Positions 4,386-25,625 of a stretch of 64,000 bases of DNA are shown here, piece after piece. The stretch is from a virus, in IMG/VR virus record IMGVR_UViG_3300028073_000008, positions 64,001-128,000 of that record; one strand, given 5' to 3'. Under the pieces are notes generated by a model. The model worked only from the letters and a program-made list of their open reading frames with translations. It did no database searches and had not been told where the DNA came from. Made by a program: the position numbers and the translations under genes. Each line of letters starts with the position of its first letter. Position 1 is the stretch's first letter.

Positions 4386-5634
4386 AACATTTTGTCTACA
4401 TCCATTTACTGGATTAGCAACTAGTACAGACGGCTCTATATTGGTCTGTTGCCGTAGTCATCCTATAGGAAATATCAAAGATAATTCTCTAGAAGAAATA
4501 TGGAACAACGATAAGATGCGTGAAATACGTAGAAAGGTCTTAAACGGAGAATGGCCTAGCGAATGTGCTTCATGTAAGTTAGACGAAGACAGCGGAGTTG
4601 AAAGCATGAGGCTTAGACATATTTCAGGAAGAATTCCTGAAACAAGATCTTTGTTATATCCTAATGCTCTAGATGAGCTTGACGACGATCACAAGATGCC
4701 TTTTAAGATTCCAAGCATGGAGATTAAGCTGAATAATCTCTGTAATCTAAAATGTCGCATGTGCCATCCTATGGATAGTACAAGTTGGAACGATTGGGAC
4801 CAAGTAGAAGAATTCTATAAAAAAGAAGGCAACTTTATGATCAATTTTATAGAAAAAAATAACCTTAAAAGAAAACCATATCTTAACTTCTACGAAGACA
4901 ATCCTAACTGGTGGAACAGCTTTGAAAAGAATATACCTTACTTTGATCGTGTAGAGTTTGCGGGCGGCGAACCATTGATGGATCCTGAACACTATAAAAT
5001 ACTGTCAATGCTAAAACCCTACGGCAAAAATATCACTTTGAAATACGCTACCAACGGTACTACTCTAGGAATCAAGAGCGGAAACATATATGATTATTGG
5101 CCAAATTTTAAATCAGTGATGGTATCTATAAGCATGGACGGCATCGGAGATGTCTACAATTATATCCGTGGTAATAGCGAGTGGCAACTTGTACTTGATA
5201 ATATTAAACGTATACAGATGATGCCTAATATCAAACGCATCGTATGCTCAGCAGCAGTACAGGTCGGTAACGTGATGAAAATAGATCAGATGATAGAATT
5301 TTTACTCGACGATCTAGGAGTTGTTTATTGGAATAATTTTGTCAACCATCCTAATCTTTTATCAGCACAGGTACTTCCTGAACCGTTGAAAAAAATAGCA
5401 GCAGAAAGATTGATGGATATGAGAGATAAAGTACCAGGTTTTAAAATGGTACAGCAATATCCTATTTTAAAAGATTTAACAATTAACCAGATCAACGGAA
5501 TAATAAGTTATATGTATGCTAAGGATCTAAGTCATATGTGGAAGGACTGTGTGGAGTTTAATCATAGATTAGATACTAGTAGAAATCAAAAGAAATTTGA
5601 AGAAGTTAACGAGGATTTCCTACCCTATGTCTGA
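4369..5634 (+). CDS. Radical SAM protein with N-terminal twitch/SPASM domain
   Basis: FCLHPF...VCC...CASC N-domain; CNLKCRMC; GGEP; likely TTG start. Confidence 0.9.
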   Translation: MNNQSKTFCLHPFTGLATSTDGSILVCCRSHPIGNIKDNSLEEIWNNDKMREIRRKVLNGEWPSECASCKLDEDSGVESMRLRHISGRIPETRSLLYPNALDELDDDHKMPFKIPSMEIKLNNLCNLKCRMCHPMDSTSWNDWDQVEEFYKKEGNFMINFIEKNNLKRKPYLNFYEDNPNWWNSFEKNIPYFDRVEFAGGEPLMDPEHYKILSMLKPYGKNITLKYATNGTTLGIKSGNIYDYWPNFKSVMVSISMDGIGDVYNYIRGNSEWQLVLDNIKRIQMMPNIKRIVCSAAVQVGNVMKIDQMIEFLLDDLGVVYWNNFVNHPNLLSAQVLPEPLKKIAAERLMDMRDKVPGFKMVQQYPILKDLTINQINGIISYMYAKDLSHMWKDCVEFNHRLDTSRNQKKFEEVNEDFLPYV

Positions 5635-6532: not shown

Positions 6533-7431
6533 AATCAATAACTAGTCGCTGGCCACACCAGGATCAATTAAAAGTAGAATGGAACATAGGTAAACGCTGT
6601 AACTATGATTGTTCATATTGTCCTGACAGTATACATGACAATTGGAGTCCGCATACATCTATTGATGTACTAGAAAAGACCGTGGATAAATTATCAGAGA
6701 TTGGGCGTCCGCTACGATTAAGTCTTACTGGCGGAGAACCTTGCGTACATCCTGACATAGAAGATCTTTTTGAATATACTAAACGCAAAGGAGTTTTTTG
6801 GCTCAGCGTGACCACTAACGGTACTCGAGCTGCTCAGTGGTATATTGACAATTCGGAATTTTATCAACATCTTGTTATCAGTTTACATTTCGAGCATGAC
6901 TGGCGCCGTGTGTTGAATACCATATATGAAATCAAACATTCAAGTAAATTACAATACTTTGTCAATGTTATGGCCCACCACGACTATATGGACGATGTGA
7001 AGAAAGCTGTAGAATTCTTAGACGATAAAGATATCAAATATGCTATAAGACGCATACGCTGGACTGAAGGTGACCATAATGTGTTTGACGACATGCGCTA
7101 CGATGGAAAAGATCTCCAATGGATATTAAGCAAACAATCAACAGTGTCCCCGAATACAATAATTCGAAATGATGATCAAACAGAAATACTTCACGCCAAT
7201 GATGTCATAAAGCTACACTTAAATAAATTTAAAGGATGGTCATGTCAAGCAGGTATAGAAAGTCTCATGATAAATTGGGACGGCGAAGTACACCGAGCAA
7301 CTTGTAGAGTTGGAGGTAGTCTAGGTAATATATACAAAGATACTTTTACAGTACCTAGAGAACCGATTATATGTACTCGTGATTTCTGTACCTGCGCTGC
7401 CGACATACCTATTAGCAAGAATGAAAATTAA
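6529..7431 (+). CDS. Radical SAM protein with twitch domain
   Basis: CNYDCSYC; TGGEP; CQAG...C...CTCAAD. Confidence 0.9.
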   Translation: MKSITSRWPHQDQLKVEWNIGKRCNYDCSYCPDSIHDNWSPHTSIDVLEKTVDKLSEIGRPLRLSLTGGEPCVHPDIEDLFEYTKRKGVFWLSVTTNGTRAAQWYIDNSEFYQHLVISLHFEHDWRRVLNTIYEIKHSSKLQYFVNVMAHHDYMDDVKKAVEFLDDKDIKYAIRRIRWTEGDHNVFDDMRYDGKDLQWILSKQSTVSPNTIIRNDDQTEILHANDVIKLHLNKFKGWSCQAGIESLMINWDGEVHRATCRVGGSLGNIYKDTFTVPREPIICTRDFCTCAADIPISKNEN

Positions 7432-8188
7432 AAATTTAGATCCGACAAAGTACAAAAGATTTTTTGCGTTCGGCTGTAGCTTTACCAGATACAAATGGGC
7501 TACATGGGCAGATATTATAGGACAGAATATTCCTTACTACGAAAACTGGGGTAGACAGGGAGTAGGCAATCATTATATCTTTAATGCGGTATTAGAAGCA
7601 GACGCCAAGCACAACTTTGGTCCAGACGATCTAGTGATAATAATGTGGTCCCAGTTAGGGAGAGAAGATAGATATTTTGATAAGCGTTGGATCAGCCAAA
7701 CTATATCTGAACTCACAGACTCCGAATCGAGAAAATATGCCATAGACACTAGAGCTCACCTAATACGAGACTTAGCTTACATTAAGTCGATACAGACTTT
7801 CTTAGAACATAAAAAATGTGATTACGCACATTTGGCTATGTATCCTTTAGTGTATCTTACAACTGACTTACCATTTGCTTTTTCAGCACCGGATATGATA
7901 AGAACGGAAATGCTGCTGTCAGCTTGGATCGATCTTCGAGTGAATAAACACATTGGTAAGAGTATAGAACACCCAGATGTAGTAGAATCTTATATAGACG
8001 TTTATACAAGTATAGAAAAAACTATATTAGAATGTTTTTCCTCTATGTATGTTCTAAAAAGAGAAAATAATGATCCACATCCCACGCCCGAAGAATTTGT
8101 CAAATACCTAGACAAATTATGGCCGGATAATAAATTAGAAAATAAAACTATCCCAGATAGTTTATCACAGGCTCCACAGAGATTGTAA
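7421..8188 (+). CDS. SGNH/GDSL-hydrolase-like protein
   Basis: FGCSFT block, G.GN, DPHP C-terminal motif. Confidence 0.6.
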   Translation: MKIKNLDPTKYKRFFAFGCSFTRYKWATWADIIGQNIPYYENWGRQGVGNHYIFNAVLEADAKHNFGPDDLVIIMWSQLGREDRYFDKRWISQTISELTDSESRKYAIDTRAHLIRDLAYIKSIQTFLEHKKCDYAHLAMYPLVYLTTDLPFAFSAPDMIRTEMLLSAWIDLRVNKHIGKSIEHPDVVESYIDVYTSIEKTILECFSSMYVLKRENNDPHPTPEEFVKYLDKLWPDNKLENKTIPDSLSQAPQRL

Positions 8189-14082: not shown

Positions 14083-14762
14083 AGTACGAATACTATTACA
14101 ATCAGATGCCAGGGCAAGAACCTTGGCGCAACAATCTGATCTATACCAGCCTTATGAGCGAAGATGGTACTGTATTCGTACAATGGTACTATAATGATAC
14201 TGCCTATCACCAAGGGCAGAATCAGGTAGTGGATCCCGAATTGATGGAAGAAAAATGGCAACGTGAGCTAAAGTATCTACAGCTGATGCGAGCTTCGCAC
14301 AGTCATCTGGTGCCAGAAATACTAGACATCGATTACAAGTATAGAAAAATCTATCTGCGTGTCAATGGCAACGACTTTTGGCAGCGTAAGCTAGACGTTG
14401 GCAGTTTCGATGCTGTGTTGCCCAATTGGCGTGAACAGATGTTGGAAATCATAGACGCACACAAGAAGCTAAAATTACACAAATACAGCATGCATCCCAG
14501 CAGCTATTTCCTAGTCGACGGACAGTTGAAAAGCATCAACTACTTTTTTACCTATCACGACAGCGAACCTTATATCAGCATAGCCGACGTAGAAAGCCAT
14601 ATCTATTCTACGAGACAGGAACAGATGAAGAAAGTGTTAGCTGAAAGCACGATTAGCTGGAACGATCCGCAACCCTGGACCACTTTCGATTGGCTGTGTT
14701 GGAACAGCTTTAGATCAGAATATCCAGCAGATTTCGTAGAGGAAGCATTAAAACATGTTTAA
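14079..14762 (+). CDS. Hypothetical protein, possible kinase-like fold
   Basis: Paralog of 9582-10259 (WQRE, VPEILDID, HPSSYF...LKSINYF). Confidence 0.55.
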   Translation: MKYEYYYNQMPGQEPWRNNLIYTSLMSEDGTVFVQWYYNDTAYHQGQNQVVDPELMEEKWQRELKYLQLMRASHSHLVPEILDIDYKYRKIYLRVNGNDFWQRKLDVGSFDAVLPNWREQMLEIIDAHKKLKLHKYSMHPSSYFLVDGQLKSINYFFTYHDSEPYISIADVESHIYSTRQEQMKKVLAESTISWNDPQPWTTFDWLCWNSFRSEYPADFVEEALKHV

Positions 14763-15312
14763 ACTCATACGCTGGAACCCCGATCTAGATCTTTCGGACT
14801 TTTACAGGCGAGCAGCAGCCAAAGGTTTTGAAAATAATTCCAATCAGCAGATCATGATCGATTCTTTGAGCAAAGAAGAACGATGGGCCGCATGGATTTT
14901 ATATTATAATGATCTAGCTGCTGGTGCTGTAGCTGCGCATTCTTTTCCTGAGATGGGAGAAAATGCTTATAGGATCTGCGCCAGGACTTGTGTACTATCT
15001 GATGATCTGCCTTTACATCATTTGAGAACCAAATGGGGAATCATACGGCATCAAAACTACACCGCACAGTTTTTCATACCTGCCTGTATAGAATGGGCCG
15101 GTCGTGACAAAGATCTTTACATCACTAGCAATGAAAGCAAATCAGGTAGCCAAAGACTGGTACATGAAATTTTTTGTCCTTTATTAGCCAAAAGTGGTGT
15201 ACTTTCCAAAACAAAGGATATATACTATAGAGGTCTTACACAAACTGCTTGGCGTCTCGATGTTGAGCTGTTTTTTAAGCAACTAGATCAATTTGGTAGA
15301 TGGGTGTTGTAA
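14755..15312 (+). CDS. Hypothetical protein, possibly GNAT-like
   Basis: ORF coupled to upstream gene; fold guess weak. Confidence 0.55.
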   Translation: MFKLIRWNPDLDLSDFYRRAAAKGFENNSNQQIMIDSLSKEERWAAWILYYNDLAAGAVAAHSFPEMGENAYRICARTCVLSDDLPLHHLRTKWGIIRHQNYTAQFFIPACIEWAGRDKDLYITSNESKSGSQRLVHEIFCPLLAKSGVLSKTKDIYYRGLTQTAWRLDVELFFKQLDQFGRWVL

Positions 15313-15347
15313 AAATGCAACAATTTTACCAAAAATGAATCTAGGGG

Positions 15348-15376
15348 TTGACAACGAGACTAAATAAACTTATACT
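15348..15376 (+). promoter_or_regulatory. Sigma70-type promoter at head of tRNA region
   Basis: TTGACA-N17-TATACT; followed by 5' hairpin CTGTTA-GAAA-TAACAG (15385-15400). Confidence 0.85.
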
Positions 15377-15417
15377 TGGACTAACTGTTAGAAATAACAG
15401 AAAGGAAACTGAAGCAA

Positions 15418-15567
15418 ATGAAATCATCGACATTACATAGACAAATGATACAGAAAGCGCAATTGGGCGGCTTTAATGCCACCTATTGGCCCGTATGTTC
15501 AATTAGTCTCGCTAATGATCGTACACCAGAGCTACAGCCGGGGTCCACGAAGGATACGATGATGTAA
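15418..15567 (+). CDS. 49-aa leader peptide (MKSSTLHRQMIQKAQLGGFNATYWPVCSISLANDRTPELQPGSTKDTMM), putative attenuator leader
   Basis: AAGGA SD at 15402-15406; all 20 amino acids; lies between the promoter and a terminator; not in the ORF track. Confidence 0.7.
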   Translation: MKSSTLHRQMIQKAQLGGFNATYWPVCSISLANDRTPELQPGSTKDTMM

Positions 15568-15603
15568 CACAAATTACACATCAAGAATTCAAAGGACCCC
15601 AGG
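15538..15603 (+). promoter_or_regulatory. Putative antiterminator hairpin
   Basis: GGGGTCC (15540-46) complements GGACCCC (15594-600); inner helix GATGATGTAA/TTACACATC. Confidence 0.65.
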
Positions 15604-15628
15604 ATTAAAAACCCTGGGGTTTTTGTTT
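15594..15628 (+). terminator. Intrinsic terminator (attenuator)
   Basis: ACCCCAGG-9nt-CCTGGGGT followed by TTTTGTTT. Confidence 0.85.
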
Positions 15629-15642
15629 ATAAGGAATGAAGA

Positions 15643-15831
15643 ATGGAATGGAAATACGAAAACATCGATCATAGCAAGCTCAATGATCGTATCGTCGAGC
15701 AAGCATATCATGGAACGCTTCCATCTGTTTTAAACGAGGAAAGTGTTCAGCGTATGATCGCTGACAAGATTGAAAGAGCAAAACAGGAAAGAAACTGCTT
15801 AGTTAAGCTAGGTTACTTTACTGAGAACTAA
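15643..15831 (+). CDS. Small hypothetical protein
   Basis: AAGGA SD; 62 aa. Confidence 0.6.
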   Translation: MEWKYENIDHSKLNDRIVEQAYHGTLPSVLNEESVQRMIADKIERAKQERNCLVKLGYFTEN

Positions 15832-15840
15832 AGTGTGTAT

Positions 15841-16064
15841 AGGGAACGCGGCCCTGCTGGCACTATAAACATCGGCTATTAACGTGGGCGGCCTGGGGGA
15901 TGAGAAGCCTGTGGCGGAAACGCAGGTGGTAAAAACCCAGTGTAGTTAAACACTCTCTCTTGCCTTTGAAACAGGCATGACAGCATAGCGGAGAGTGCTT
16001 AACTACCCACACCTACCCTTCTCCCCCTGACGGATAAAACGCATAGCGGCTGGAATAGGTGTGG
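15841..16064 (+). ncRNA. Unassigned structured RNA (multiple hairpins)
   Basis: GC-rich non-coding; helices 15893-97/15936-40, 15942-57/15991-16006, 16007-15/16056-64. Confidence 0.55.
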
Positions 16065-16074
16065 TACATAATTT

Positions 16075-16160
16075 GGAGGCGTGTGCCGAGCAGCGAAGGC
16101 AGCGGTCTGTAAAACCGTGACATAGAAACAGCGTAGGTGCGAGTCCTACCGCCTCCACCA
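16075..16160 (+). tRNA. tRNA-Tyr(GTA)
   Basis: Cloverleaf, gcggt-CT-GTA-AA-accgt, long V arm, ACCA. Confidence 0.92.
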
Positions 16161-16188
16161 TATTCACGCTAAATATTAGGCAAGGAGA

Positions 16189-16626
16189 ATGCCTATGATA
16201 GCTACTAAATTTACTACGACTAACAATGATTCTAATTTTACAACCATCGACGAGTTCAGTGGGTGGTTAAGGGATCTTGTAGGAATAGAATATTTTAAAG
16301 AACTGACTTATATTAGGTCGGATGCGATCATAGACGGAATTGCTACTCCTGTAGGTAGTTATTATTGGGAAGCAGAAACAAAGAGTGCGATTTATATGGT
16401 CTTTCATCGAGATCTGCTTGACGCTAAATCCTTCCAATTAAATTACCTTTCTAATGATATAGCACGTTCTGTAGAGCAGGCCGTCAAAGAACACGGTTGG
16501 TCTATTAAGATGGAATCACTATCAGCAGATCCTGATCCGGAAGTTAGCAATTTCCAAATCATAGATCATCCTACAAACGTAGAAAACATACGCCCTAGCA
16601 GAAGAACAGAAATTAGCGGCCCTTAA
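16189..16626 (+). CDS. Hypothetical protein
   Basis: AAGGAG SD, TAAATA upstream; 3' end overlaps tRNA-Arg. Confidence 0.7.
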   Translation: MPMIATKFTTTNNDSNFTTIDEFSGWLRDLVGIEYFKELTYIRSDAIIDGIATPVGSYYWEAETKSAIYMVFHRDLLDAKSFQLNYLSNDIARSVEQAVKEHGWSIKMESLSADPDPEVSNFQIIDHPTNVENIRPSRRTEISGP

Positions 16627-16694
16627 CTCAGCTGGACCAGAGTGCTTGTCTTCGAAACAAGAAGTCGGGAGTTCGAATCTCTCAGGGCCGGCCA
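16617..16694 (+). tRNA. tRNA-Arg(TCG)
   Basis: cttgt-CT-TCG-AA-acaag; GTTCGAATC; GCCA. Confidence 0.92.
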
Positions 16695-16700
16695 ATCATT

Positions 16701-16774
16701 ATCGGACTGATGTAACGGCAGCATGACGGTCTCCAAAACCGTTCGTTGGGGTTCAAATCCCTAGTCCGGTGCCA
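16701..16774 (+). tRNA. tRNA-Trp(CCA)
   Basis: acggt-CT-CCA-AA-accgt; GCCA. Confidence 0.92.
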
Positions 16775-16777
16775 TTT

Positions 16778-16855
16778 ACCACTTTAGCTCAACTGGATAA
16801 GAGCACAACCTTGCGAAGGTTGAGGTTAGGGGTTCGAGTCCCTTAAGTGGTGCCA
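16778..16855 (+). tRNA. tRNA-Arg(GCG)
   Basis: caacc-TT-GCG-AA-ggttg; acceptor ACCACTT/AAGTGGT; GCCA. Confidence 0.9.
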
Positions 16856-17268
16856 AAGATGTCTGGATGTGAAGGTTTAACTGTAACATTTATGACTTTG
16901 CTGACAAATTTAAAATGTCGGCTCAACGTATCAAATATTTCGATGTTAAGTGCTTGACCTGCTCGGCTATAACTGTTACTGCCTATAGCACCATAGTAAT
17001 CTATGTCAAGACCTTTGCGTCGACCATAGTCAGGAAATACACCACAAAGAAAGAGACATTCGTCTCCTAAGCTCTTAGCATCATGTGAGTTTTTTATCCT
17101 ATGATAAGTTTCTATGAAACTATCTTCGGGCATCCAGTTTGGACGATCGATATGGCTGGCGAGCAACATGACTACATATTGCTCGACGAACAACGGCAGC
17201 TCATACCCGTAACTATCTTTAGTTTGGTTAATGAGCAGCTTGAATGCTGAAACGTATTCATCGCTCAT
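16843..17268 (-). CDS. Hypothetical protein antisense within tRNA array
   Basis: Start MSDEYVSAF 5 nt after TAAATA; LGDECLFLCGVFP...YY. Confidence 0.7.
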   Translation of the reverse strand: MSDEYVSAFKLLINQTKDSYGYELPLFVEQYVVMLLASHIDRPNWMPEDSFIETYHRIKNSHDAKSLGDECLFLCGVFPDYGRRKGLDIDYYGAIGSNSYSRAGQALNIEIFDTLSRHFKFVSKVINVTVKPSHPDIFGTT

Positions 17269-17286
17269 AATAATATTTATTTCAGA

Positions 17287-17360
17287 GGTGTCTTTAGTGT
17301 AGTGGTAGCAAAGCTGACTGTGAATCAGCAGGCGAGGGTTCGATTCCCCAAGGCACCCCA
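17287..17360 (+). tRNA. tRNA-His(GTG), canonical G-1:C73 type
   Basis: G-1 + GTGTCTT/AAGGCAC-C-CCA; gctga-CT-GTG-AA-tcagc. Confidence 0.9.
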
Positions 17361-17365
17361 TTTTA

Positions 17366-17520
17366 AGGGATAGACGATAGTTTAGAGTCCCTGCCAGTCT
17401 AGGCACAGTGGGGTTGACTGTGTTGACACTATAGTATGACTGAAGCCGGTATGTTAAACTTGACTATTCGAGACAATCTAGCGAGTCCTCCCAGGAGGAT
17501 AGTTAGGCGCCCGACTTTTA
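17366..17520 (+). ncRNA. Unassigned structured spacer RNA
   Basis: Hairpins AGGGA/TCCCT, GCACAGT/ACTGTGT, TCCTC/GAGGA; no credible ORF. Confidence 0.4.
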
Positions 17521-17521
17521 T

Positions 17522-17599
17522 CTGTGTGTAATGTCAGCCCGGGAGACGGCCTGGTTTGGAGCCAGGAGGCCGTAGGTTCAAATCCTACCACACAGACCA
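17522..17599 (+). tRNA. tRNA-Pro(TGG)
   Basis: cctgg-TT-TGG-AG-ccagg; ACCA. Confidence 0.9.
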
Positions 17600-17604
17600 A
17601 ATAT

Positions 17605-17680
17605 GCCAGTTTAGCTGATGTGGTCATAGCGGTGGTCTGAAGAACCATTGAACTAGGTTCGATTCCTAGAGCTGGCACCA
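17605..17680 (+). tRNA. tRNA-Phe(GAA)
   Basis: gtggt-CT-GAA-GA-accat; ACCA. Confidence 0.92.
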
Positions 17681-17690
17681 AATTTTTTAG

Positions 17691-17718
17691 TTGACACGTT
17701 TTTTAGATGTGCTATATT
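17691..17718 (+). promoter_or_regulatory. Sigma70-type promoter (internal to tRNA array)
   Basis: TTGACA-N16-TATATT with extended TG. Confidence 0.65.
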
Positions 17719-17735
17719 AGTATCATAACTGGCTA

Positions 17736-17810
17736 GGGCGTGTAGCTTAAAGGTGAAGCCGGCCGCTCATAACGGTCTTAGTGTGTGTTCGAGTCACACC
17801 GCGCCCACCA
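17736..17810 (+). tRNA. tRNA-Ile2(CAT) (lysidine type)
   Basis: GGCCGCTCATAACGGT anticodon arm typical of proteobacterial Ile2; ACCA. Confidence 0.8.
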
Positions 17811-17825
17811 GTTATTAAAGTTTTT

Positions 17826-17924
17826 GCCCCTGTAGCTTAATGGTAAAGAAGCGAGCTTATACCTCGCCAAAGCACAGGCCAGATAAGCCTGAGTGTGCAG
17901 GTTCGAGTCCTGCCAGGGGCACCA
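17826..17924 (+). tRNA. tRNA-Ile(TAT) with abnormally long variable region
   Basis: gcgag-CT-TAT-AC-ctcgc; ~29-nt V region; perfect T arm and acceptor; ACCA. Confidence 0.8.
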
Positions 17925-17929
17925 TATGC

Positions 17930-18005
17930 GGGCGTATAACTCAGTCGGTAGAGTAGCTGACTCTTAATCAGTTTGTCGTAGGTTCGATCCCTACTGCGCC
18001 TACCA
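17930..18005 (+). tRNA. tRNA-Lys(CTT)
   Basis: gctga-CT-CTT-AA-tcagt; ACCA. Confidence 0.92.
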
Positions 18006-18010
18006 AGTAT

Positions 18011-18086
18011 GCCGTCGTAGTGTTAGTGGCTAGCACGACTGTTTGTGGAGCAGTAGGAGTTGGATCGAAACCAACCGCCGGTACCA
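18011..18086 (+). tRNA. tRNA-His(GTG), no G-1, A73 (alphaproteobacterial type)
   Basis: actgt-TT-GTG-GA-gcagt; starts GCCG preceded by T; ends A-CCA. Confidence 0.8.
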
Positions 18087-18091
18087 TTTAA

Positions 18092-18186
18092 GCACTAGCC
18101 GTAAGGCCGGCGATAAGAAGGAAGCACGAGCATAGCTGTGTTTGCTTGGTCGGTGGATTGGAACGACTCACTCTTTTCACTAGTGC
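18092..18186 (+). ncRNA. Unassigned structured spacer RNA
   Basis: Closing stem GCACTAG/CTAGTGC with internal hairpins (GCC-GTAA-GGC; AAGCAC...GTGTTT). Confidence 0.45.
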
Positions 18187-18191
18187 CCTTT

Positions 18192-18269
18192 GCCCCTGTG
18201 GACAAATTGGTAAAGTCATCTCTCTCAAAAGGAGAAGTTCTCTCAGTTCGAATCTGAGCAGGGGTACCA
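18192..18269 (+). tRNA. tRNA-Leu(CAA), short variable arm
   Basis: tctct-CT-CAA-AA-ggaga; ACCA. Confidence 0.88.
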
Positions 18270-18284
18270 CTTATAAATAGACTG

Positions 18285-19772
18285 ATGAAAGGTCTTATTT
18301 TTAATATTTTGGGTTCACCGACCCGAACGCTAGGCGCATATCGTATAGCTCATTGTCTCAGAGAAGAAGGTTGGGACATCGAAGTTATCGACTTCTGCGA
18401 AGTTTGGGAGTTAGATGAATTACAAGAGTTAGCAAAATCCCGGATCGACAAAGACACTGTCTTTCTAGGATTTAGTTTTCTTTTCAGCAACATGTCTGAA
18501 AGATTTGAAAACTATATCAAATGGTTGAAAGTTACTTTCCCAGATGTATTGTTGATTTCAGGAGGACAAGTAGCTGCTCAGTTTGATACTAGTTCTTTTG
18601 ATTTACATATAAAAGGTTTCGGTGAACTAGCACTGTTAGAATTCCTTAGATGGTACAAAGGCAACGGACCTAGACCGAGATTTGATTTGTTATCAAAAGG
18701 GTGTAAGCTCATAGATGCTAACAAACAGTATCCGGCATATCCAATGAAGAGTCTCATGGTCAAGTATGAAGATAGAGATTTCATAGACTCAAACGAATGG
18801 TTGACTATAGAGTTTGCTCGAGGTTGTAAATTTAAATGTGACTTCTGTAACTTTCCAATCTTAGGAGTCAAGGGCGACTATAGCAGAGATGCCGAAGACG
18901 CTAGGATACAATTACAAGACAGCTATGATAGATTCGGAGTATCCAACTATCTCGTATCAGATGAAACATTTAATGACCGAACTGAAAAGATCAGCAAGTT
19001 CGCTGATGTTGTAGAACAGCTTTCATTCCGACCTTGGTTCTCAGGATTCGTCAGGGCAGATTTATTGATATCTCGTCCTAGAGATAGAGAAGAACTGCTT
19101 AGGATGAATTTCCTAGGACAGTATTATGGTATAGAAAGTTTCAACAGAGATGCTGCCAGGATAGTTGGCAAAGGAATGGATCCTGAAAAGATCAAACAAG
19201 GGTTGATAGATATAAAAAATTATTATCATTCAAATGGTACAAAATTGTATCGAGGATCTATTAGTTTGATCATAGGGTTAGCAAAAGAAAATAGAGAAAG
19301 CCTAGACAATACTATTAGATGGTTGACAGAGAATTGGAGTGGCGAATCATTCAGTCCGTTTGTATTAGAAGTGCCTATAGGTTCGTTCGATACAAAATCT
19401 TCGATAAGTTCAAACTATCAATCATATGGTTATAGATTGATGAAAGATTCTGATGTAAAACGCAGCGCAAACTTGAATGTCGGGTATGTTAGGAGAGAAA
19501 CAGCTCTTAGTGAAGACTGTCTAAAATGGGAGCATGACGATCTTAACATAGTAGAAGCTACCCAGATACAGGATGAATGGTTAGAAGTTAGAGATAATCC
19601 TAACAATAAATTCACTGTAAACTGTTTTAGTTTAAGCGATGTCGGTAGACACTTACCTATATCTGAAAAATTAAAACTGCCTCAAAAGGCAATCGACATG
19701 AGTACAGATTGGAATCATCCAGATTTCAAAGAACTGATGGCGAATTATAAGTTCAAAAAATTATCTTTGTGA
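18285..19772 (+). CDS. B12-binding-domain radical SAM protein (class B-like)
   Basis: N-terminal cobalamin-binding-like domain (LGAYRIA...ISGG...GFGE); ARGCKFKCDFC; DETFN; GIESF. Confidence 0.85.
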   Translation: MKGLIFNILGSPTRTLGAYRIAHCLREEGWDIEVIDFCEVWELDELQELAKSRIDKDTVFLGFSFLFSNMSERFENYIKWLKVTFPDVLLISGGQVAAQFDTSSFDLHIKGFGELALLEFLRWYKGNGPRPRFDLLSKGCKLIDANKQYPAYPMKSLMVKYEDRDFIDSNEWLTIEFARGCKFKCDFCNFPILGVKGDYSRDAEDARIQLQDSYDRFGVSNYLVSDETFNDRTEKISKFADVVEQLSFRPWFSGFVRADLLISRPRDREELLRMNFLGQYYGIESFNRDAARIVGKGMDPEKIKQGLIDIKNYYHSNGTKLYRGSISLIIGLAKENRESLDNTIRWLTENWSGESFSPFVLEVPIGSFDTKSSISSNYQSYGYRLMKDSDVKRSANLNVGYVRRETALSEDCLKWEHDDLNIVEATQIQDEWLEVRDNPNNKFTVNCFSLSDVGRHLPISEKLKLPQKAIDMSTDWNHPDFKELMANYKFKKLSL

Positions 19773-19801
19773 TTGACAGCAGTCAGTTAATGTAGTACAA
19801 T
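19773..19801 (+). promoter_or_regulatory. Sigma70-type promoter
   Basis: TTGACA-N17-TACAAT. Confidence 0.8.
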
Positions 19802-19813
19802 AATCAAACTTAG

Positions 19814-19891
19814 GGACAGGTGCCAGAGAGGTCCAATGGAACAGTCTGCAAAACTGTAAAGCCGTGGGTTCAAATCCCACCCTGTCCTCCA
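19814..19891 (+). tRNA. tRNA-Cys(GCA)
   Basis: acagt-CT-GCA-AA-actgt; U73-CCA. Confidence 0.92.
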
Positions 19892-19918
19892 CGTTGTTTG
19901 ACAATCAAATCAGTTAAT

Positions 19919-19993
19919 GCTCCGGTCGTCTATCGGTCAGGACGCTGCCCTTTCAAGGCGGAAAGAGGGGTTCGACTCCCCTTCGGAGTACCA
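19919..19993 (+). tRNA. tRNA-Glu(TTC)
   Basis: ctgcc-CT-TTC-AA-ggcgg; ACCA. Confidence 0.92.
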
Positions 19994-19999
19994 TTTAAT

Positions 20000-20075
20000 G
20001 CGGGCGTAGCTCAGTTGGTAGAGCATTACCTTGCCAAGGTAAATGTCGTCGGTTCGAACCCGATCGCCCGCTCCA
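20000..20075 (+). tRNA. tRNA-Gly(GCC)
   Basis: ttacc-TT-GCC-AA-ggtaa; TCCA. Confidence 0.95.
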
Positions 20076-20130
20076 ATTTTTTAAAGGAGGAAACTATCAT
20101 GGGAGATGATGGTAAATCTGGTAAACGTTT

Positions 20131-20206
20131 GGGCCCTTAGCTCAGTAGGTAGAGCAGCGGACTTTTAATCCGTTGGTCGTGAGTTCGAATCTCACAGGGC
20201 CCACCA
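20131..20206 (+). tRNA. tRNA-Lys(TTT)
   Basis: gcgga-CT-TTT-AA-tccgt; ACCA. Confidence 0.95.
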
Positions 20207-20210
20207 TTAC

Positions 20211-20297
20211 CATATTGAAATATACTGTAGCGGGTTCGCAAGTATGAGTCGCATTCTAAAGAGTGTCCTTGAACTGAATATAGTGTATTTCAATATG
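20211..20297 (+). ncRNA. Unassigned long-stem RNA
   Basis: 19-bp closing helix (20211-29/20279-97) containing two G-U pairs. Confidence 0.5.
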
Positions 20298-20302
20298 TTA
20301 AT

Positions 20303-20378
20303 GGCAGTATAGCATAGCGGCTAATGCGGCACCTTCATACGGTGTATATCGTAGGTTCGAGTCCTACTACTGCTACCA
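20303..20378 (+). tRNA. tRNA-Met(CAT), elongator
   Basis: gcacc-TT-CAT-AC-ggtgt; ACCA. Confidence 0.85.
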
Positions 20379-20387
20379 TAAAAATTC

Positions 20388-20463
20388 GGGCCAGTAGCTC
20401 ATCTGGGAGAGCGCCTCGTTTGCACCGAGGAGGTAGCGGGTTCAAGTCCTGTCTGGTCCACCA
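20388..20463 (+). tRNA. tRNA-Ala(TGC)
   Basis: G3:U70; cctcg-TT-TGC-AC-cgagg. Confidence 0.93.
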
Positions 20464-20469
20464 TGTTAT

Positions 20470-20544
20470 GGCTCGTTCATATAGTGGCTATTATGCCTGC
20501 CTGTCTAGCAGGACATAGGGGTTCGATTCCCCTACGAGTCGCCA
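20470..20544 (+). tRNA. tRNA-Asp(GTC)
   Basis: cctgc-CT-GTC-TA-gcagg; GCCA. Confidence 0.92.
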
Positions 20545-20551
20545 ACTCTAT

Positions 20552-20627
20552 TCCGGAGTAGCACAGAGGTAGTTGCAGCGGACTGTTAATCCGCGTGTCG
20601 TTGGTTCGATCCCAACCTCCGGAGCCA
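20552..20627 (+). tRNA. tRNA-Asn(GTT)
   Basis: gcgga-CT-GTT-AA-tccgc; GCCA. Confidence 0.93.
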
Positions 20628-20630
20628 AGT

Positions 20631-20845
20631 TTTGAGAGTGTCAGCAAGAGAAAGACACGCTGGTTAGGTTTCTTCGAAGGACCGACCCAGTAGAAGGTGG
20701 CGGGTTCGATGCCCGGCGGATCGGAAGATCCGTGTACAAGGTGGCGTACTATCTGGTCCGGTATCCCGAGTGACGTACCGAGTCCCGCTAGCTAATCCGG
20801 AGAAGGGTGAATGGTAGCAATAACGATGGTGCTACAACTCTCAAA
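20631..20845 (+). ncRNA. Unassigned ~215-nt multibranch structured RNA
   Basis: Closing TTTGAGAGT/ACTCTCAAA; internal helices GCGGG/CCCGC, CGGATC-GGAA-GATCCG, CGGTA/TACCG; GC-rich in AT-rich genome. Confidence 0.6.
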
Positions 20846-20853
20846 TTCATTAT

Positions 20854-20928
20854 TGGGGAATCGTCTAATCGGTAGGACACCTGACTTTGACTCAGGCAGT
20901 ATTGGTTCGAGTCCAGTTTCCCCAGCCA
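20854..20928 (+). tRNA. tRNA-Gln(TTG)
   Basis: cctga-CT-TTG-AC-tcagg; GCCA. Confidence 0.92.
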
Positions 20929-20929
20929 C

Positions 20930-21004
20930 ACCGGAGTAGCTCAGAGGTAGAGCAGCGGCCCGATAAGCCGTTGGTCGTTGGTTCAATTCCAACCTTCGGT
21001 ACCA
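20930..21004 (+). tRNA. tRNA-Ile(GAT) (C33 instead of U33)
   Basis: gcggc-CC-GAT-AA-gccgt; ACCA. Confidence 0.88.
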
Positions 21005-21012
21005 GAATACGG

Positions 21013-21041
21013 TTGACACAGTCAACAAAAGACTACATAAT
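21013..21041 (+). promoter_or_regulatory. Sigma70-type promoter
   Basis: TTGACA-N17-CATAAT. Confidence 0.75.
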
Positions 21042-21050
21042 ATAAACAAT

Positions 21051-21133
21051 GCCCCGATGGTGGAATTGGTAGACACGCTGGTCTTAGAAGCCAGTACTTC
21101 GGTGTGCGAGTTCGAGTCTCGCTTGGGGCACCA
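21051..21133 (+). tRNA. tRNA-Leu(TAG)
   Basis: ctggt-CT-TAG-AA-gccag; V arm; ACCA. Confidence 0.93.
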
Positions 21134-21276
21134 TTAGTTAGTAGCATAGCTCGTCGGCCTACGATCAAGGCTAACCTTGTCCGAAGCGGGAAGCCTATGA
21201 TACTAGTAACTGGTCTGTGTAACAGATCAACAATAGGTAGCAAGAGGATAGTAAACTATGCTACTAACTAATGGTG
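21129..21276 (+). ncRNA. Unassigned RNA closed by a perfect 21-bp inverted repeat
   Basis: CACCATTAGTTAGTAGCATAG (21129-49) / CTATGCTACTAACTAATGGTG (21256-76). Confidence 0.55.
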
Positions 21277-21284
21277 AAAGTTTA

Positions 21285-21359
21285 GGGTGATTAGCTCAGT
21301 GGTAGAGCGCCTCGTTTACACCGAGGATGTCGGGAGTTCGACCCTCTCATCACCCACCA
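21285..21359 (+). tRNA. tRNA-Val(TAC)
   Basis: cctcg-TT-TAC-AC-cgagg; ACCA. Confidence 0.95.
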
Positions 21360-21364
21360 ATTAT

Positions 21365-21454
21365 GGAAGTGTGGTCGAGTCTGGTTTATGGCAACGGTCT
21401 TGAAAACCGTCGAACCGAAAGGTTCCGTGAGTTCGAATCTCACCGCTTCCGCCA
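21365..21454 (+). tRNA. tRNA-Ser(TGA)
   Basis: acggt-CT-TGA-AA-accgt; long V arm; GCCA. Confidence 0.95.
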
Positions 21455-21468
21455 TATTAAATAGTATC

Positions 21469-22257
21469 ATGAAAGCTATAAAGATACTGATCTGCGGACT
21501 GCCAGGAGCAGGTAAAACAACACTGGCTAAAGCATTACAATCTAGATTAGGTGATACCGAACACCTAGAAGCAGATGCTGTTAGAAAACGGTTTGATGAT
21601 TGGGACTTCAGTGAAGAAGGACGAATCAGGCAAAGCTTCAGGATGAAACTGCTGTCAGATGAAAGCGAAGCACGTTACGTGATCGCCGACTTCATAGCAC
21701 CTCTAGAAGCTACTAGAAAAAACTATTCAGCAGATTGGACCATTTGGGTTGACACTATCCGCGAAGGCAGATATGAAGATACCAACAAGATGTTCCAAGA
21801 ACCAGACATATATGATTTCCGTATCACTGAACAAGATGCTGAAAAATGGGCAGCGTTTATCTCTGATCATATATTGGCCGATCGCAGACGTCCTGTATGG
21901 AATAATCGCAAAGAAACTGTACAGATGTTAGGTCGTTGGCAACCATGGCATGATGGGCATCGTGCTCTATTCGAAAGAGCGTTGGCCAAGACTGGTCAAG
22001 TCTGTATCATGGTGCGTGATTGCCAAGGTTGGAATGATAGTAATCCGTTCAACTTCTACGATGTGGCTAGATTTATCAAGAGAGATCTAGATCCTTTGTA
22101 TCAAGGTCAATTCCAAATCGTGCTTGTGCCTAATATCGTGAACATCACGTATGGTAGGGATGTAGGTTACAAGATCGAACAAGAACATTTTGATCAATCT
22201 ATCACTGATATCTCTGCTACAAAGATAAGAGAATCGTTGAATATCAAGAAGGATTGA
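21469..22257 (+). CDS. Adenylylsulfate-kinase-like P-loop domain fused to HIGH-type nucleotidyltransferase domain
   Basis: GLPGAGKTT...DAVRK..DFSEEGR; C-terminal GRWQPWHDGH...ISATKIR; start corrected to avoid tRNA overlap. Confidence 0.75.
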   Translation: MKAIKILICGLPGAGKTTLAKALQSRLGDTEHLEADAVRKRFDDWDFSEEGRIRQSFRMKLLSDESEARYVIADFIAPLEATRKNYSADWTIWVDTIREGRYEDTNKMFQEPDIYDFRITEQDAEKWAAFISDHILADRRRPVWNNRKETVQMLGRWQPWHDGHRALFERALAKTGQVCIMVRDCQGWNDSNPFNFYDVARFIKRDLDPLYQGQFQIVLVPNIVNITYGRDVGYKIEQEHFDQSITDISATKIRESLNIKKD

Positions 22258-22258
22258 T

Positions 22259-22900
22259 ATGAGTAGCGTTGTTGTTACAGGTGAAAAGAACATAGCGTTC
22301 GTACACAATCCCAAAGTGGCTGGTATGAGTATCAAGAGTTGGTTGATATCTAACAGAAAGAACAGCACGTATCAAGAATTTGATCTCAAAGTAACGTTCA
22401 ATGATCTAAAAAACACAGTAGACAATTTGCCATTTAGCTTTAGCATAGTTAGAAACCCTTGGGACCGCATGGTCAGTGGTTACTATGAACTGCGTAGATG
22501 GTATGATAATCCAGGAAAAGCCAGCCAAGACAATTTAAATTTTGTCCGAGACTATTTTAATAGATCTCCGTTTCCATCTTTCGATCAGTTTATGAACGAA
22601 TTTCCACAAGACGAAATGTGGTCTGTGTTATATCCTATGCTGTCTCCATATCCTCCTACATGGCCTAAAGGTGCCGTGACACAGAAGCAGTATGTTGACG
22701 GTGTAAATTTGATATTGCGATATGAAAATATCGAAGAAGATTTCAAACAGATACAAAAGATCTATGATTGTGATGTGCCATTGCCCATGATCAATACTTC
22801 CGAAAATAATGACTATAGATCATACTACAACGATAGGACTAAAGCCATAGTAGCTGCGTTCTTCCAAGAAGACATAGACACATTCAGATACAGTTTCTAA
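22259..22900 (+). CDS. Sulfotransferase family 2 protein
   Basis: FVHNPKVAGMS (5'-PSB) and VRNPWDRMVSGY (3'-PB). Confidence 0.85.
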   Translation: MSSVVVTGEKNIAFVHNPKVAGMSIKSWLISNRKNSTYQEFDLKVTFNDLKNTVDNLPFSFSIVRNPWDRMVSGYYELRRWYDNPGKASQDNLNFVRDYFNRSPFPSFDQFMNEFPQDEMWSVLYPMLSPYPPTWPKGAVTQKQYVDGVNLILRYENIEEDFKQIQKIYDCDVPLPMINTSENNDYRSYYNDRTKAIVAAFFQEDIDTFRYSF

Positions 22901-22961
22901 AATCTTATACCACGATAAGTATCATTGTTCCGCAGTGCGGTAAAAAACAAGGAGGACTATC

Positions 22962-23381
22962 ATGAGTATCATGGACTTTATCCATAAGATAGAACAAGTC
23001 AGTGAAACTGCTGCTAGAAGACTGTCTCATCGTGCTTTACACGCGGCCGCAACTGTCTATAGTGATGCTAAAGAATTAGCCGACAAGTCGGCCAAGGACG
23101 TAGACAAAGCCAAGGCCAAACTAGAAGATGCCATGAAGAAGGCATATCAACACGCCGATGCTGCCCATTCAGCCGCAGTCGACGCATATGAAAAAGCCAA
23201 TGCTGAAGCACAAAGATTGGCACAAGAAGTCGAAGACGCTGCTTTCGAAGCAGCAAATAAACTGAATGCTCTTATCAATGCTGGGTTACAACCTATTCCC
23301 GGCAAAGAAGAGAAAAAAGAAGAACCAGAACCTTATTCTAGAGCAAATGCTGTAGACAAAGATTCTGTTTCAGTGTTATAA
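22962..23381 (+). CDS. Ala/Lys-rich helical hypothetical protein
   Basis: AGGAGG SD; 139 aa. Confidence 0.75.
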   Translation: MSIMDFIHKIEQVSETAARRLSHRALHAAATVYSDAKELADKSAKDVDKAKAKLEDAMKKAYQHADAAHSAAVDAYEKANAEAQRLAQEVEDAAFEAANKLNALINAGLQPIPGKEEKKEEPEPYSRANAVDKDSVSVL

Positions 23382-23390
23382 TAGAACATT

Positions 23391-23482
23391 GGTGAGGTGG
23401 ATGAGAGGCTTAAATCAGCAGTTTGCTAAACTGTCGTAGGCAGAAATGTCTACCGCGGGTTCGAATCCCGCCCTCACCGCCA
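23391..23482 (+). tRNA. tRNA-Ser(GCT)
   Basis: gcagt-TT-GCT-AA-actgt; long V arm; GCCA. Confidence 0.95.
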
Positions 23483-23505
23483 AGTTCAAATATAAGTAAG
23501 AATAC

Positions 23506-23581
23506 GCTGCTTTAGCTCAGCCGGTAGAGCAACTGCCTTGTAAGCAGTAGGTCGTCAGTTCGAATCCGACAAGCAGCACCA
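23506..23581 (+). tRNA. tRNA-Thr(TGT)
   Basis: actgc-CT-TGT-AA-gcagt; ACCA. Confidence 0.95.
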
Positions 23582-23595
23582 TAATAAGGCAATAG

Positions 23596-24213
23596 ATGAA
23601 ATACGCTTATATCAATCCAACTGTGATAGCTGTAGACGACCTGCCAGCAGATGTCTTTGCCTATCTCAAGAACATGGTAGATACAGCGCATCAAATGACT
23701 CAGTTCAACGATGCTGGAGATCAATCCATTAGCATTAGAGGCGGTCAACAGATACAGCTATTGCCTAACGACTTTGGTCAGGATGTCACTGTATTGAAAA
23801 GTTTCGTGGAACAACGATGCTATGATTACATGGATACACTGACTAGACAATCGGGTAAACCTGATCTAGTCAATCTTGAACCAGAACTTGTGAGTGCCTG
23901 GACTATCAGACAAACAGCTGGTAACTATCAGGCCTTACATACACATAACGCACATATCAGCGGCAACATCTACATAGATGTTCCAGACCTAGATCCAGGA
24001 AGTCAATCTTCAGATGCCAATCTAGAATTTAGATTTCCTGTGGTCAAGGATCCCAGCAAGTTTACTTTTATAGATCAATTGAGATTTTCTCCGCGACCCA
24101 TGATGATGGTCATGTTTCCTAGCTATCTTCCACATACAGTATACCCGTGGAATGGACAAGGACACAGAACTATTTTGGCATGGGACGTGAAATTAAAGCC
24201 AAAAATGGCTTGA
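23596..24213 (+). CDS. Putative 2OG-Fe(II) oxygenase (phage TIGR02466-like)
   Basis: W...HTH...ISG..Y...FPSYLPHTVYP...R. Confidence 0.8.
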   Translation: MKYAYINPTVIAVDDLPADVFAYLKNMVDTAHQMTQFNDAGDQSISIRGGQQIQLLPNDFGQDVTVLKSFVEQRCYDYMDTLTRQSGKPDLVNLEPELVSAWTIRQTAGNYQALHTHNAHISGNIYIDVPDLDPGSQSSDANLEFRFPVVKDPSKFTFIDQLRFSPRPMMMVMFPSYLPHTVYPWNGQGHRTILAWDVKLKPKMA

Positions 24214-24238
24214 CAGCATACACAAAATATCGTATTAT
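24210..24238 (+). promoter_or_regulatory. Sigma70-type promoter
   Basis: TTGACA-N17-TATTAT. Confidence 0.75.
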
Positions 24239-24242
24239 AGAG

Positions 24243-24510
24243 TTGTTGCGTAGGAAACTGCGCAGCCGGCGAGGTAAAGGGTAGATGAGGATAGACAATC
24301 GTTCGGCTTCATGCCGAGCTCCAATACTGGCAAACAGTCTTGAAAACTGTCCGTGCTTGTGTGTTCCGATACCAAAATAGAATGTCTGTTGATAGTCGGA
24401 AATAAGCAGGCCTCTGTGCTATGTACATTGAGGTTTGTCAAAGGCGTTATCGTTGATCCGCCCCTGTCAGTTGTCCGGTCTATTACTTGACCTTTTACCA
24501 ACCCGTTATT
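24243..24510 (+). ncRNA. Unassigned ~270-nt structured RNA/leader
   Basis: GGTAAAGGGT/ACCTTTTACC and ATAGAC/GTCTAT long-range helices, several hairpins; directly after promoter. Confidence 0.55.
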
Positions 24511-24527
24511 AATCAAAGGAAAAAGAA

Positions 24528-25100
24528 ATGAACATCACTCTACGCAAGGCAAACGCACTACAAACAGCAATCAATGATGCTATCCGTAGCATCAAGGTCG
24601 AAACTTCGATCGAACTGAACGAATTCCAAGATGTAGCAGCAGAATTGAAAGCTGCCAATGACCAACTGTTTGCCAGCGATGCTCGTAGACAGAAGTTGCT
24701 GTTGGCTCTTTACAACATCCGCGGTCTAGTAGCCGCAGCCAACGCTACTAATGACATCGATCTCAACCTAACCAAGGCTGCGTTCATCGACAAGCGCATC
24801 GGCCAGTTGGAAGAAATGGCTAACCAAAAGCCAGTGACTGATGTCGCTGTGCTCACAGGCAAGCTGGAAAAGATCAAGAATGACAAGGGCGAACATCGTA
24901 GCCGCATTTACGGCTACAGCGATACTGTCGCTACTTCTGTGCTCAGCCAGGAACAGATCGACAAGGTCAAGGCTGAGATCTTGAATCTCAAGAAGCAGAA
25001 GCAAAAGATCAACGATTCTATCTTGGAAGCTAACATCAAGACAGAAATTCCGTTGAGCGACGATGTCGCAGAAACATTGAAAGTAGAAAATCTACTGTAA
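24528..25100 (+). CDS. Coiled-coil hypothetical protein
   Basis: AAGGA SD; 190 aa. Confidence 0.8.
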   Translation: MNITLRKANALQTAINDAIRSIKVETSIELNEFQDVAAELKAANDQLFASDARRQKLLLALYNIRGLVAAANATNDIDLNLTKAAFIDKRIGQLEEMANQKPVTDVAVLTGKLEKIKNDKGEHRSRIYGYSDTVATSVLSQEQIDKVKAEILNLKKQKQKINDSILEANIKTEIPLSDDVAETLKVENLL

Positions 25101-25106
25101 GTTTAT

Positions 25107-25181
25107 AGCAGGGTAGAGAAGCAGTAACTCACCAGGTTCATACCCTGGAGATCGGTGGTGCGATTCCACCCCCTGCAACCA
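25107..25181 (+). tRNA. tRNA-Met(CAT), initiator-like
   Basis: A1:A72 mismatch; ccagg-TT-CAT-AC-cctgg; ACCA. Confidence 0.75.
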
Positions 25182-25185
25182 GTTT

Positions 25186-25262
25186 CGGAGTGTAGCGCAG
25201 CCTGGTAGCGCAACTGGTTTGGGACCAGTGGGTCGGGAGTTCGAATCTCTCCACTCCGACCA
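25186..25262 (+). tRNA. tRNA-Pro(TGG)
   Basis: actgg-TT-TGG-GA-ccagt; ACCA. Confidence 0.95.
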
Positions 25263-25277
25263 TTTATTGAGGTATAT

Positions 25278-25625
25278 ATGAGTGACGGCGGCAAAGGTAG
25301 TAAACCAAGACCATTTAGTGTTGATCAAAAGACATTCGATAATAACTGGGATAATATCTTTAACAGAAAAAAGAAAACAGACGCAGAACTGTTTGATGAA
25401 GCTGTCATGAAAGATGAATACTACGATTTGGAGAATGAAATGCAGATGCCTGTAGAAGAAAACGCAGATGAAATTGGTAAATGTGGTTGTGGTCGCAGCC
25501 CCACTGGTAAGTGTATCGGTTGGCATGGACTGACCGAAGAAGACTATCGAGTCAAGCTAGCAGAATGGGAAGAAAAGAAACTAAGCGATCGCAAAGTCGC
25601 AGCCAGCTATATCAAAGAAGATTAA
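25278..25625 (+). CDS. Protein with CDGSH-type iron-sulfur/zinc finger
   Basis: CGCGRSPTGKCIGWH. Confidence 0.75.
   Translation: MSDGGKGSKPRPFSVDQKTFDNNWDNIFNRKKKTDAELFDEAVMKDEYYDLENEMQMPVEENADEIGKCGCGRSPTGKCIGWHGLTEEDYRVKLAEWEEKKLSDRKVAASYIKED

Follow-up and report, generated by a model that had tools for sequence, protein, structure and literature searches.

The leaders trpL, hisL, pheL and leuL and the multivalent thrL and ilvL contain codon runs for one to three cognate amino acids, whose synthesis they control, and T-box leaders bind one specific uncharged transfer RNA (tRNA) directly, without translation. The closest known system to the element described here is the upstream open reading frame (uORF) attenuator of whiB7 (wblC), known from mycobacteria and further Actinobacteria, in which efficient translation of the uORF leads to termination and translation stress of many kinds leads to read-through (PMC10274678). 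The amino acids encoded by that uORF set which starvations are sensed, and removal of its Trp or His codons abolishes the matching response; the uORF of Mycobacterium smegmatis contains 19 of the 20 amino acids, whereas the content varies between species, is enriched in alanine and lacks several amino acids in M. tuberculosis (PMC10274678). The part of the toiL account considered here describes a uORF of topAI-yjhQ, a toxin-antitoxin transcript in Escherichia coli, that reports ribosome-targeting antibiotics (PMC12121999). We describe a leader in a 64-kb window (the whole stretch of 64,000 nucleotides analysed, from IMG/VR record IMGVR_UViG_3300028073_000008, to which all coordinates refer) of an uncultured phage from a river metagenome assembly. 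Its leader open reading frame (ORF) at 15418-15567 precedes a structured RNA and an array of 35 tRNA genes, and probably forms the sensing part of a ribosome-mediated transcription attenuator that samples all 20 amino acids. At 101.6 kb the assembly is too small for a jumbo phage, the class to which the first-pass annotation of this DNA had assigned it.

The phage leader has in common with whiB7 a promoter-proximal uORF, a rho-independent terminator and a competing antiterminator, and its mixed composition fits the same pattern. It differs from whiB7 in that completeness itself is selected in the phage leader, and in that the target of whiB7 is a cellular transcription factor, whereas a phage structured RNA and tRNA genes occupy that place here; no sequence relation between the two was detected, and instead of a WhiB-family regulator an ORF of 62 amino acids, the RNA and the tRNAs lie downstream. 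With the amino-acid operon leaders it shares a short leader ORF, mutually exclusive helices and an arrangement in which an upstream stall would free the antiterminator strand, but it lacks their runs, has mostly one or two codons per amino acid, and no stable helix between segments 1 and 2 was found in it. Set against the usual anatomy of ribosome-mediated attenuators, it contains a short ORF with a ribosome-binding site, a terminator and an antiterminator that overlaps the coding region and is incompatible with terminator formation; a run of cognate codons is absent. Like toiL, it would report general translation stress through ribosome stalling; unlike it, the leader has an all-amino-acid composition and a link to tRNA genes, neither of which is reported in the portion of the toiL study considered (PMC12121999). 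As in T-box leaders, tRNA status would be coupled to terminator read-through by way of an antiterminator, but the sensing element here would be the reading frame, and no T-box model matches.

The elements of the leader, like the genes that follow it, lie on the plus strand. A sigma-70-type promoter (TTGACA-N17-TATACT, 15348-15376; 11 of 12 matches in a consensus scan) has a predicted transcript start at approximately 15383, and a TTGAC(A)-N17-TAnAAT site is located at the same position in relatives. At the transcript start, folding and covariation define a 5' hairpin (15385-15400, CUGUUA-GAAA-UAACAG) with a GAAA tetraloop, which is probably a stabiliser; its stem shows compensatory changes among relatives and its loop is mainly GNRA, and it is absent from three of them (L053, L056 and L057). 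A Shine-Dalgarno-like AAGGAA (15402-15407) is situated 10 nucleotides 5' of the ATG at 15418, and the AAGGAAA block and TGAAGCAAATGAAA are kept in relatives. The leader ORF itself, which ends with a stop codon at 15565-15567 and is present in one copy in the genome, has 49 sense codons of 37 distinct kinds, contains no codon runs and uses most amino acids one to three times each; codons 1-36 carry 19 amino acids, the sole Glu being codon 38. In all these respects, from promoter and hairpin to the 37 codons and 20 amino acids, what had been read from the sequence at first pass was found to be correct. The peptide matched no Pfam or PHROG family, and among INPHARED phage records the search returned only a tRNA match.

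A sequence of 49 codons drawn from the codon usage of this phage is expected to contain 30.6 ± 2.4 distinct codons, and the probabilities of at least 37 codons, of 20 amino acids and of both are 0.006, 0.034 and 0.001, respectively. Since these single-sequence probabilities are post hoc, relatives were used as the test, and it is the conservation found there that provides the decisive evidence. They were sought by peptide search, by a DNA pattern allowing any synonymous codon of NDRTPELQPGS, by profile search and among representatives of 50% identity clusters. The module was recovered in three IMG/VR contigs by peptide search and in eight metagenome contigs by the codon-degenerate pattern; these close copies have the order promoter, usually 5' hairpin, Shine-Dalgarno sequence, an ORF of 46-49 codons and an identical terminator, mostly followed by a small ORF, the conserved RNA and then a tRNA array. 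It was also found in 12 more diverse loci, for which the DNA of profile-search family members was fetched. The Shine-Dalgarno sequence, start codon and frame are kept in 20 DNA copies and in approximately 170 distinct peptides; the length of the leader ORF is held at 41-53 codons and ORF-internal insertions and deletions are multiples of three. The observation is therefore confirmed as real and strongly conserved, and the recommended check for a conserved ORF length and position in homologues was borne out, the stop codon standing 15-26 nucleotides after segment 2 (defined below). A spurious ORF that by chance lies beside a terminator could be suspected where a 64-kb window has been read for oddities and the post hoc probability of 37 codons with 20 amino acids is about 0.001; it is refuted by the comparative data, as the module is kept in dozens of divergent phages, and we regard it as scarcely tenable.

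Amino-acid completeness is kept across most of the family. All 20 amino acids are present in 12 of the 12 close copies (8 distinct peptides) and in 76 of 100 family members obtained by profile search, 19 of the remainder having 19 and five having 18; a null in which alignment columns were shuffled gave 24 ± 3.8 complete members for this set. Among 71 short representatives of 50% identity clusters from an exhaustive search, with a median pairwise identity of 42%, 53 have 20 amino acids, 15 have 19, two have 18 and one has 17, against 2.5 ± 1.5 complete peptides expected from their own composition and 15.6 ± 3.2 after column shuffling (maximum 27 in 1000 trials). The residues that make the peptides complete move: where an amino acid occurs only once, the sole Cys occupies 23 alignment columns, Val 12, Phe 10, His 9 and Tyr 5. 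His, Trp, Cys and Tyr show strong under-dispersion in their counts; every member has His, Trp and Tyr, with 1.1-1.3 copies on average and variance-to-mean ratios of 0.09-0.26. Despite its greater length, the neighbouring small-ORF family uses just 15-18 kinds of amino acid in 12 of its 13 copies. The codons of the leader can be read by 28 of the 30 distinct anticodons of the phage (null 21.3 ± 2.0, P = 0.0003), a number that is attained in none of 2218 windows taken from real genes. Selection thus keeps the leader complete for all 20 amino acids, and the all-20 composition pointed out at first pass stands far above the null in relatives while the rare residues shift position.

These data bear on the possibility of an ordinary gene for a small protein, followed by a terminator of its own, in which the peptide is functional and the alternative RNA pairing a by-product. 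There is a conserved peptide family, and a terminator after a gene is common; in the metatranscriptome assemblies, mean word depth, a poor measure, is higher for the contig ending in the terminator stem than for the one that follows. A sole Cys found in 23 positions and a sole His in nine are, however, unfit for a structural or binding role, and the pairing, frame and linkage data below argue against it as well; an ordinary small protein is in our view quite unlikely.

Roughly the last ten leader codons, together with the stop codon, provide the 5' half of a three-tier hairpin (15538-15603). The 5' strand of its lower stem is segment 2 (CCGGGGUCC, 15538-15546, codons 41-43), as deduced from complementarity, folding and covariation, and within it GGGGTCC (15540-15546) is perfectly complementary to GGACCCC (15594-15600) in segment 3 (GGACCCCAGG, 15594-15603). 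The remainder of the antiterminator (15549-15590) was obtained by folding and consists of a middle stem (15549-15551 with 15588-15590) and an upper stem (15558-15567 with 15574-15582), so that the inner helix spans 15558-15582 and the stop codon at 15565-15567 lies within its 5' arm. Segment 3 is common to the antiterminator, in which it pairs with segment 2, and to the intrinsic terminator (15596-15628), in which it pairs with segment 4: a G+C-rich stem of 8 base pairs (15596-15603 with 15613-15620) with a 9-nucleotide loop, followed by TTTTTGTTT, with the U tract at 15620-15628. An automated terminator scan listed the site on the minus strand only, because its loop limit was 8. The complementarity, the terminator and the inner helix at the stop codon had all been recognised at first pass and are present. 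The minimum-energy fold of the leader (z = -4.4) includes the antiterminator, which in the window is predicted at -22.7 kcal/mol versus -16.2 kcal/mol for the terminator alone.

Covariation and folding were assessed in 20 distinct aligned leaders. Segments 2 and 3 pair in 97% of cells; at one position the pair is G-C in 13 leaders and A-U in seven with no exceptions, and a second changes from C-G to U-A in L057, so the covariation predicted for GGGGTCC and GGACCCC was indeed observed. Terminator pairing holds in 99% of cells. In the leaders with U in segment 3, segment 4 has G four times and A three times, and segment 2 has A every time; G-U is thus often tolerated in the terminator and segment 2 is always Watson-Crick there. 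In L051 and L053 the nucleotides of segment 2 are read in another frame, as TGVQ and TRVR instead of PGS, from which it follows that the RNA is what is conserved. All 20 leaders form the three-tier hairpin, with the lower stem of segments 2 and 3, a middle stem (mostly GGAG with CUUC) and an upper stem, at -21 to -27 kcal/mol versus -14 to -16 kcal/mol for the terminator alone; upper-stem sequences are unrelated between lineages, yet are always paired and always hold the stop codon. The spacing between segment 2 and the stop codon is 15-26 nucleotides, that between the stop codon and segment 3 19-29 nucleotides. A small protein gene would account neither for a segment 2 kept in another frame and covarying with the terminator arm, nor for a stop codon that always lies inside the upper hairpin. 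Neither by eye nor by folding could a consistent, stable anti-antiterminator helix between segments 1 and 2 be found; with the antiterminator being the stronger structure, an untranslated leader should therefore read through.

The same structural data might suggest a structured RNA that senses a ligand, a protein or a tRNA directly, as a riboswitch or T-box, with a frame that is incidental or only clears the structure. The folding z-score of -4.4, the extensive nucleotide conservation at synonymous sites and the covarying 5' hairpin are in line with such a sensor. On the other hand, frame, start codon and Shine-Dalgarno sequence are kept in all copies and ORF-internal length changes are multiples of three, the all-20 composition is far above the null and has a meaning only in frame, and no match to an Rfam family, T-box or other, approaches the threshold. 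In eight close copies RNAalifold predicted a long-range helix joining codons 4-7 to the AAUGAU block; in 20 diverse copies it was no better than with shuffled heads in most sequences, and this candidate was rejected. Direct sensing by the RNA is, on balance, very unlikely.

Linkage to tRNA genes is strict. In 16 of 16 loci with downstream DNA, an array of 10-31 tRNAs follows the leader on the same strand within approximately 1.1 kb, which is what the proposed search for homologous leaders before tRNA arrays had been expected to return, and at least 70 distinct relatives begin their tRNA region with such a leader. The genes upstream are unrelated (ClpP, a methyltransferase, a porin, an M23 peptidase and AhpC), and an ordinary small protein would hardly remain so firmly linked to tRNA arrays despite them. 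In L046, no promoter-like site was found between the terminator and the first tRNA, so tRNA expression there must come from read-through; that its downstream RNA and tRNAs lack a promoter of their own is a further point against a self-contained small gene. Upstream of the leader, L046 has two tandem promoters with 12 of 12 consensus matches (3836-3952). An upstream gene of 185 amino acids was considered as part of the module and discarded, as 19 IMG/VR loci share it without the leader or an adjacent array.

One part of the peptide is conserved in a different manner. The NDRTPELQ codons (15514-15537) are nearly invariant in nucleotides and peptide in the alignment of relatives, and over approximately 170 distinct peptides NDRTPE and W24 are nearly invariant within variable surroundings. 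At most of the conserved positions the residue is one that the peptide uses only once or twice. The codon-degenerate pattern search returned only this one synonymous version of the block. Such a motif might indicate a nascent peptide that arrests the ribosome in the manner of TnaC, SecM or Erm leaders: on a signal from a factor or small molecule, NDRTPE and the invariant Trp would stall or pause it just ahead of segment 2, with the all-20 content being secondary. The near-invariance itself is in agreement with arrest, as are the position of NDRTPE, which ends 0-3 codons before segment 2, and the failure to establish an RNA partner for its nucleotides. A purely peptide role would, however, have no need of fixed synonymous sites; a stall at the motif would place the edge of the ribosome on segment 2 and favour termination; the Cys, Val, His and Phe residues that move and yet are kept would be unexplained; and the peptide matches no known arrest motif and no Pfam or PHROG family. 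We consider arrest by the nascent peptide unlikely.

Several observations also weigh against the reading of the leader as an attenuator that samples all 20 amino acids. The conserved residues are nearly fixed at synonymous sites too, so that an RNA-level or codon-specific constraint contributes, and folding with shuffled controls established no RNA pairing partner for the NDRTPE nucleotides; the poor peptide conservation predicted at first pass was not borne out. The near-fixed AAU, GAU, UAU, ACA and GCC codons may mean that particular codons or tRNA modification states are read in addition to amino acids. Glu is placed unfavourably: it is absent before NDR in 62 of 98 members and is usually located 0-3 codons before segment 2 or after it, and Glu codon 38 of the window lies 7 nucleotides before segment 2. 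A ribosome stalled so close to segment 2 may mask it and cause termination, and a shortage of Glu may thus be sensed poorly. The 'pan-codon' design originally proposed, in which the leader spreads over synonymous codons, was not upheld: the excess of distinct codons over random codon usage stands (P = 0.006), but with the peptide fixed it is weak (z = +1.9 in the window and on average +1.0 over 20 relatives, with five of 20 leaders below the expected synonymous-codon diversity), which places the signal at the amino-acid level and makes 'pan-amino-acid' the more apt term. The family was drawn largely from called ORFs, and broken copies would therefore be missed. Finally, direct control is limited by other promoters. 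The consensus scan found those at 17691, 19773, 21013 and 24210, which had been named at first pass as possibly confining direct control to the first tRNA block, and three more at 23353, 26159 and 27272; with strong promoters from 17691 on, direct control would extend over the first 2.3 kb or so. In L054 a promoter with 12 of 12 matches stands directly before the first tRNA.

Taking both sides together, we maintain that the leader is probably a ribosome-mediated transcription attenuator. Host RNA polymerase would start at the 15348 promoter. If no ribosome is present on codons 38-49 or thereabouts while 15594-15628 is being made, the stronger antiterminator would form and transcription would run on through the 62-amino-acid ORF, the structured RNA and the first tRNAs; a ribosome that keeps pace would cover or unwind segment 2, the terminator would form and transcription would stop, and any ribosome that reaches the last codons would have to melt the 5' half of the antiterminator. 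As the ORF holds every amino acid, slow decoding of any class would delay the ribosome and switch the downstream genes on, whether the tRNA is scarce, uncharged, cleaved or unmodified. Between the start codon and the end of the U tract the polymerase would have approximately 210 nucleotides to transcribe, in the time in which the ribosome covers approximately 38 codons. Typical bacterial rates are roughly 40-50 nucleotides per second for transcription and 15-20 codons per second for translation; at such rates the race would be close, and a delay of about 1 s at any codon would give segments 2 and 3 time to pair ahead of the synthesis of segment 4. New phage tRNAs would restore decoding and shut the switch, which would constitute negative feedback. 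We give even chances to the wider proposal that the leader is a whole-alphabet meter of decoding capacity, serving as a tRNA homeostat and counter-defence switch, in which the loss, cleavage, or lack of charging or modification of tRNAs, such as may follow host shut-off or the action of anticodon-nuclease defences, would turn on the structured RNA and tRNAs. The core of the interpretation offered at first pass thus gains from the covariation, the linkage and the composition, whereas its pan-codon part comes out weak and its expectation of poor peptide conservation was not borne out; that a stall leads to read-through is deduced from the anatomy.

The first gated gene would be the 62-amino-acid ORF (15643-15831, from the ORF call), to which no function was assigned; it is present in most relatives and absent from L046, L047, L052 and L054. 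Directly after it lies the conserved structured RNA (15832-16074), approximately 230 nucleotides long, in which 23 of 38 predicted pairs are kept through two-sided changes. It was found before tRNA-Tyr in 12 of the 12 loci examined, among other places at L020 6412-6679, L054 4208-4456 and L046 4200-4440. Neither this RNA nor the leader matched an Rfam family, the Trp, His, Thr and Leu leaders and T-box among those compared, the best matches over 15340-16080 scoring 8-21 bits versus thresholds of 42-88, and matches in L046 were likewise below threshold. In L054 and L049 the 3' end of the structured RNA overlaps a TTGACA-N17-TAnAAT site. At several loci (L021 at approximately 6640-6709, L046 at approximately 4440-4512, L047 and L048) the structured RNA is followed by a tRNA-like 3' end with T arm, acceptor and CCA and by a GUA anticodon-like loop; these were not called by ARAGORN and are probably unusual tRNA-Tyr genes.

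The first tRNA block (16075-17680) comprises Tyr, Arg-UCG, Trp, Arg-GCG, His, Pro and Phe and includes an ORF of 145 amino acids (16189-16626) with no relatives in IMG/VR. From 16075 to 27270 there are 33 tRNAs called by ARAGORN and two by Rfam, which together give the 35 of the first-pass annotation; the two Rfam-only tRNA-like genes are at 17826-17921 (96 nucleotides) and 18011-18083. Protein genes interspersed among the tRNAs (18285-19772 and 21388-22900) encode a B12-binding radical S-adenosylmethionine protein, a kinase-like P-loop protein and a sulfotransferase-like protein. In L055, genes for a release-factor-like (PCRF/RF-1) and an IF1-like protein directly follow the tRNA array (6759-7645), which suggests that phages of this group have a broader translation toolkit.

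The metatranscriptome data consist of assembled contigs, from which RNA starts, ends and levels are not readable. The contigs break inside the terminator, in a stretch identical in co-occurring relatives, and no RNA contig holds 31 letters on both sides of the U tract. Close relatives from the same river samples have the structured RNA immediately after the terminator (15628/15837), so that the 62-amino-acid ORF is skipped, and others attach different leader tails to that terminator; the module thus co-occurs in several variants, and in view of this joint and of the loose ends with other leader tails, the contig break is an assembly branch and not an RNA end. The region 14600-15230 is uncovered in three of four runs and was not used as evidence.

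A full-text literature search found no paper on control of this kind over phage tRNA genes. The arrays of phage tRNAs are usually discussed as constitutive cargo for codon usage or anti-defence; the leader suggests instead that tRNAs are made on demand in a large group of freshwater phages, and its first gated product would be a structured RNA without a known family. What selection acts on here is a peptide's composition rather than its sequence, which is a rare kind of evidence, and a natural module of approximately 250 nucleotides should be able to report a shortage of any charged tRNA. The finding bears on when and why phages express their tRNAs and on how they may respond to tRNA-targeting defences.

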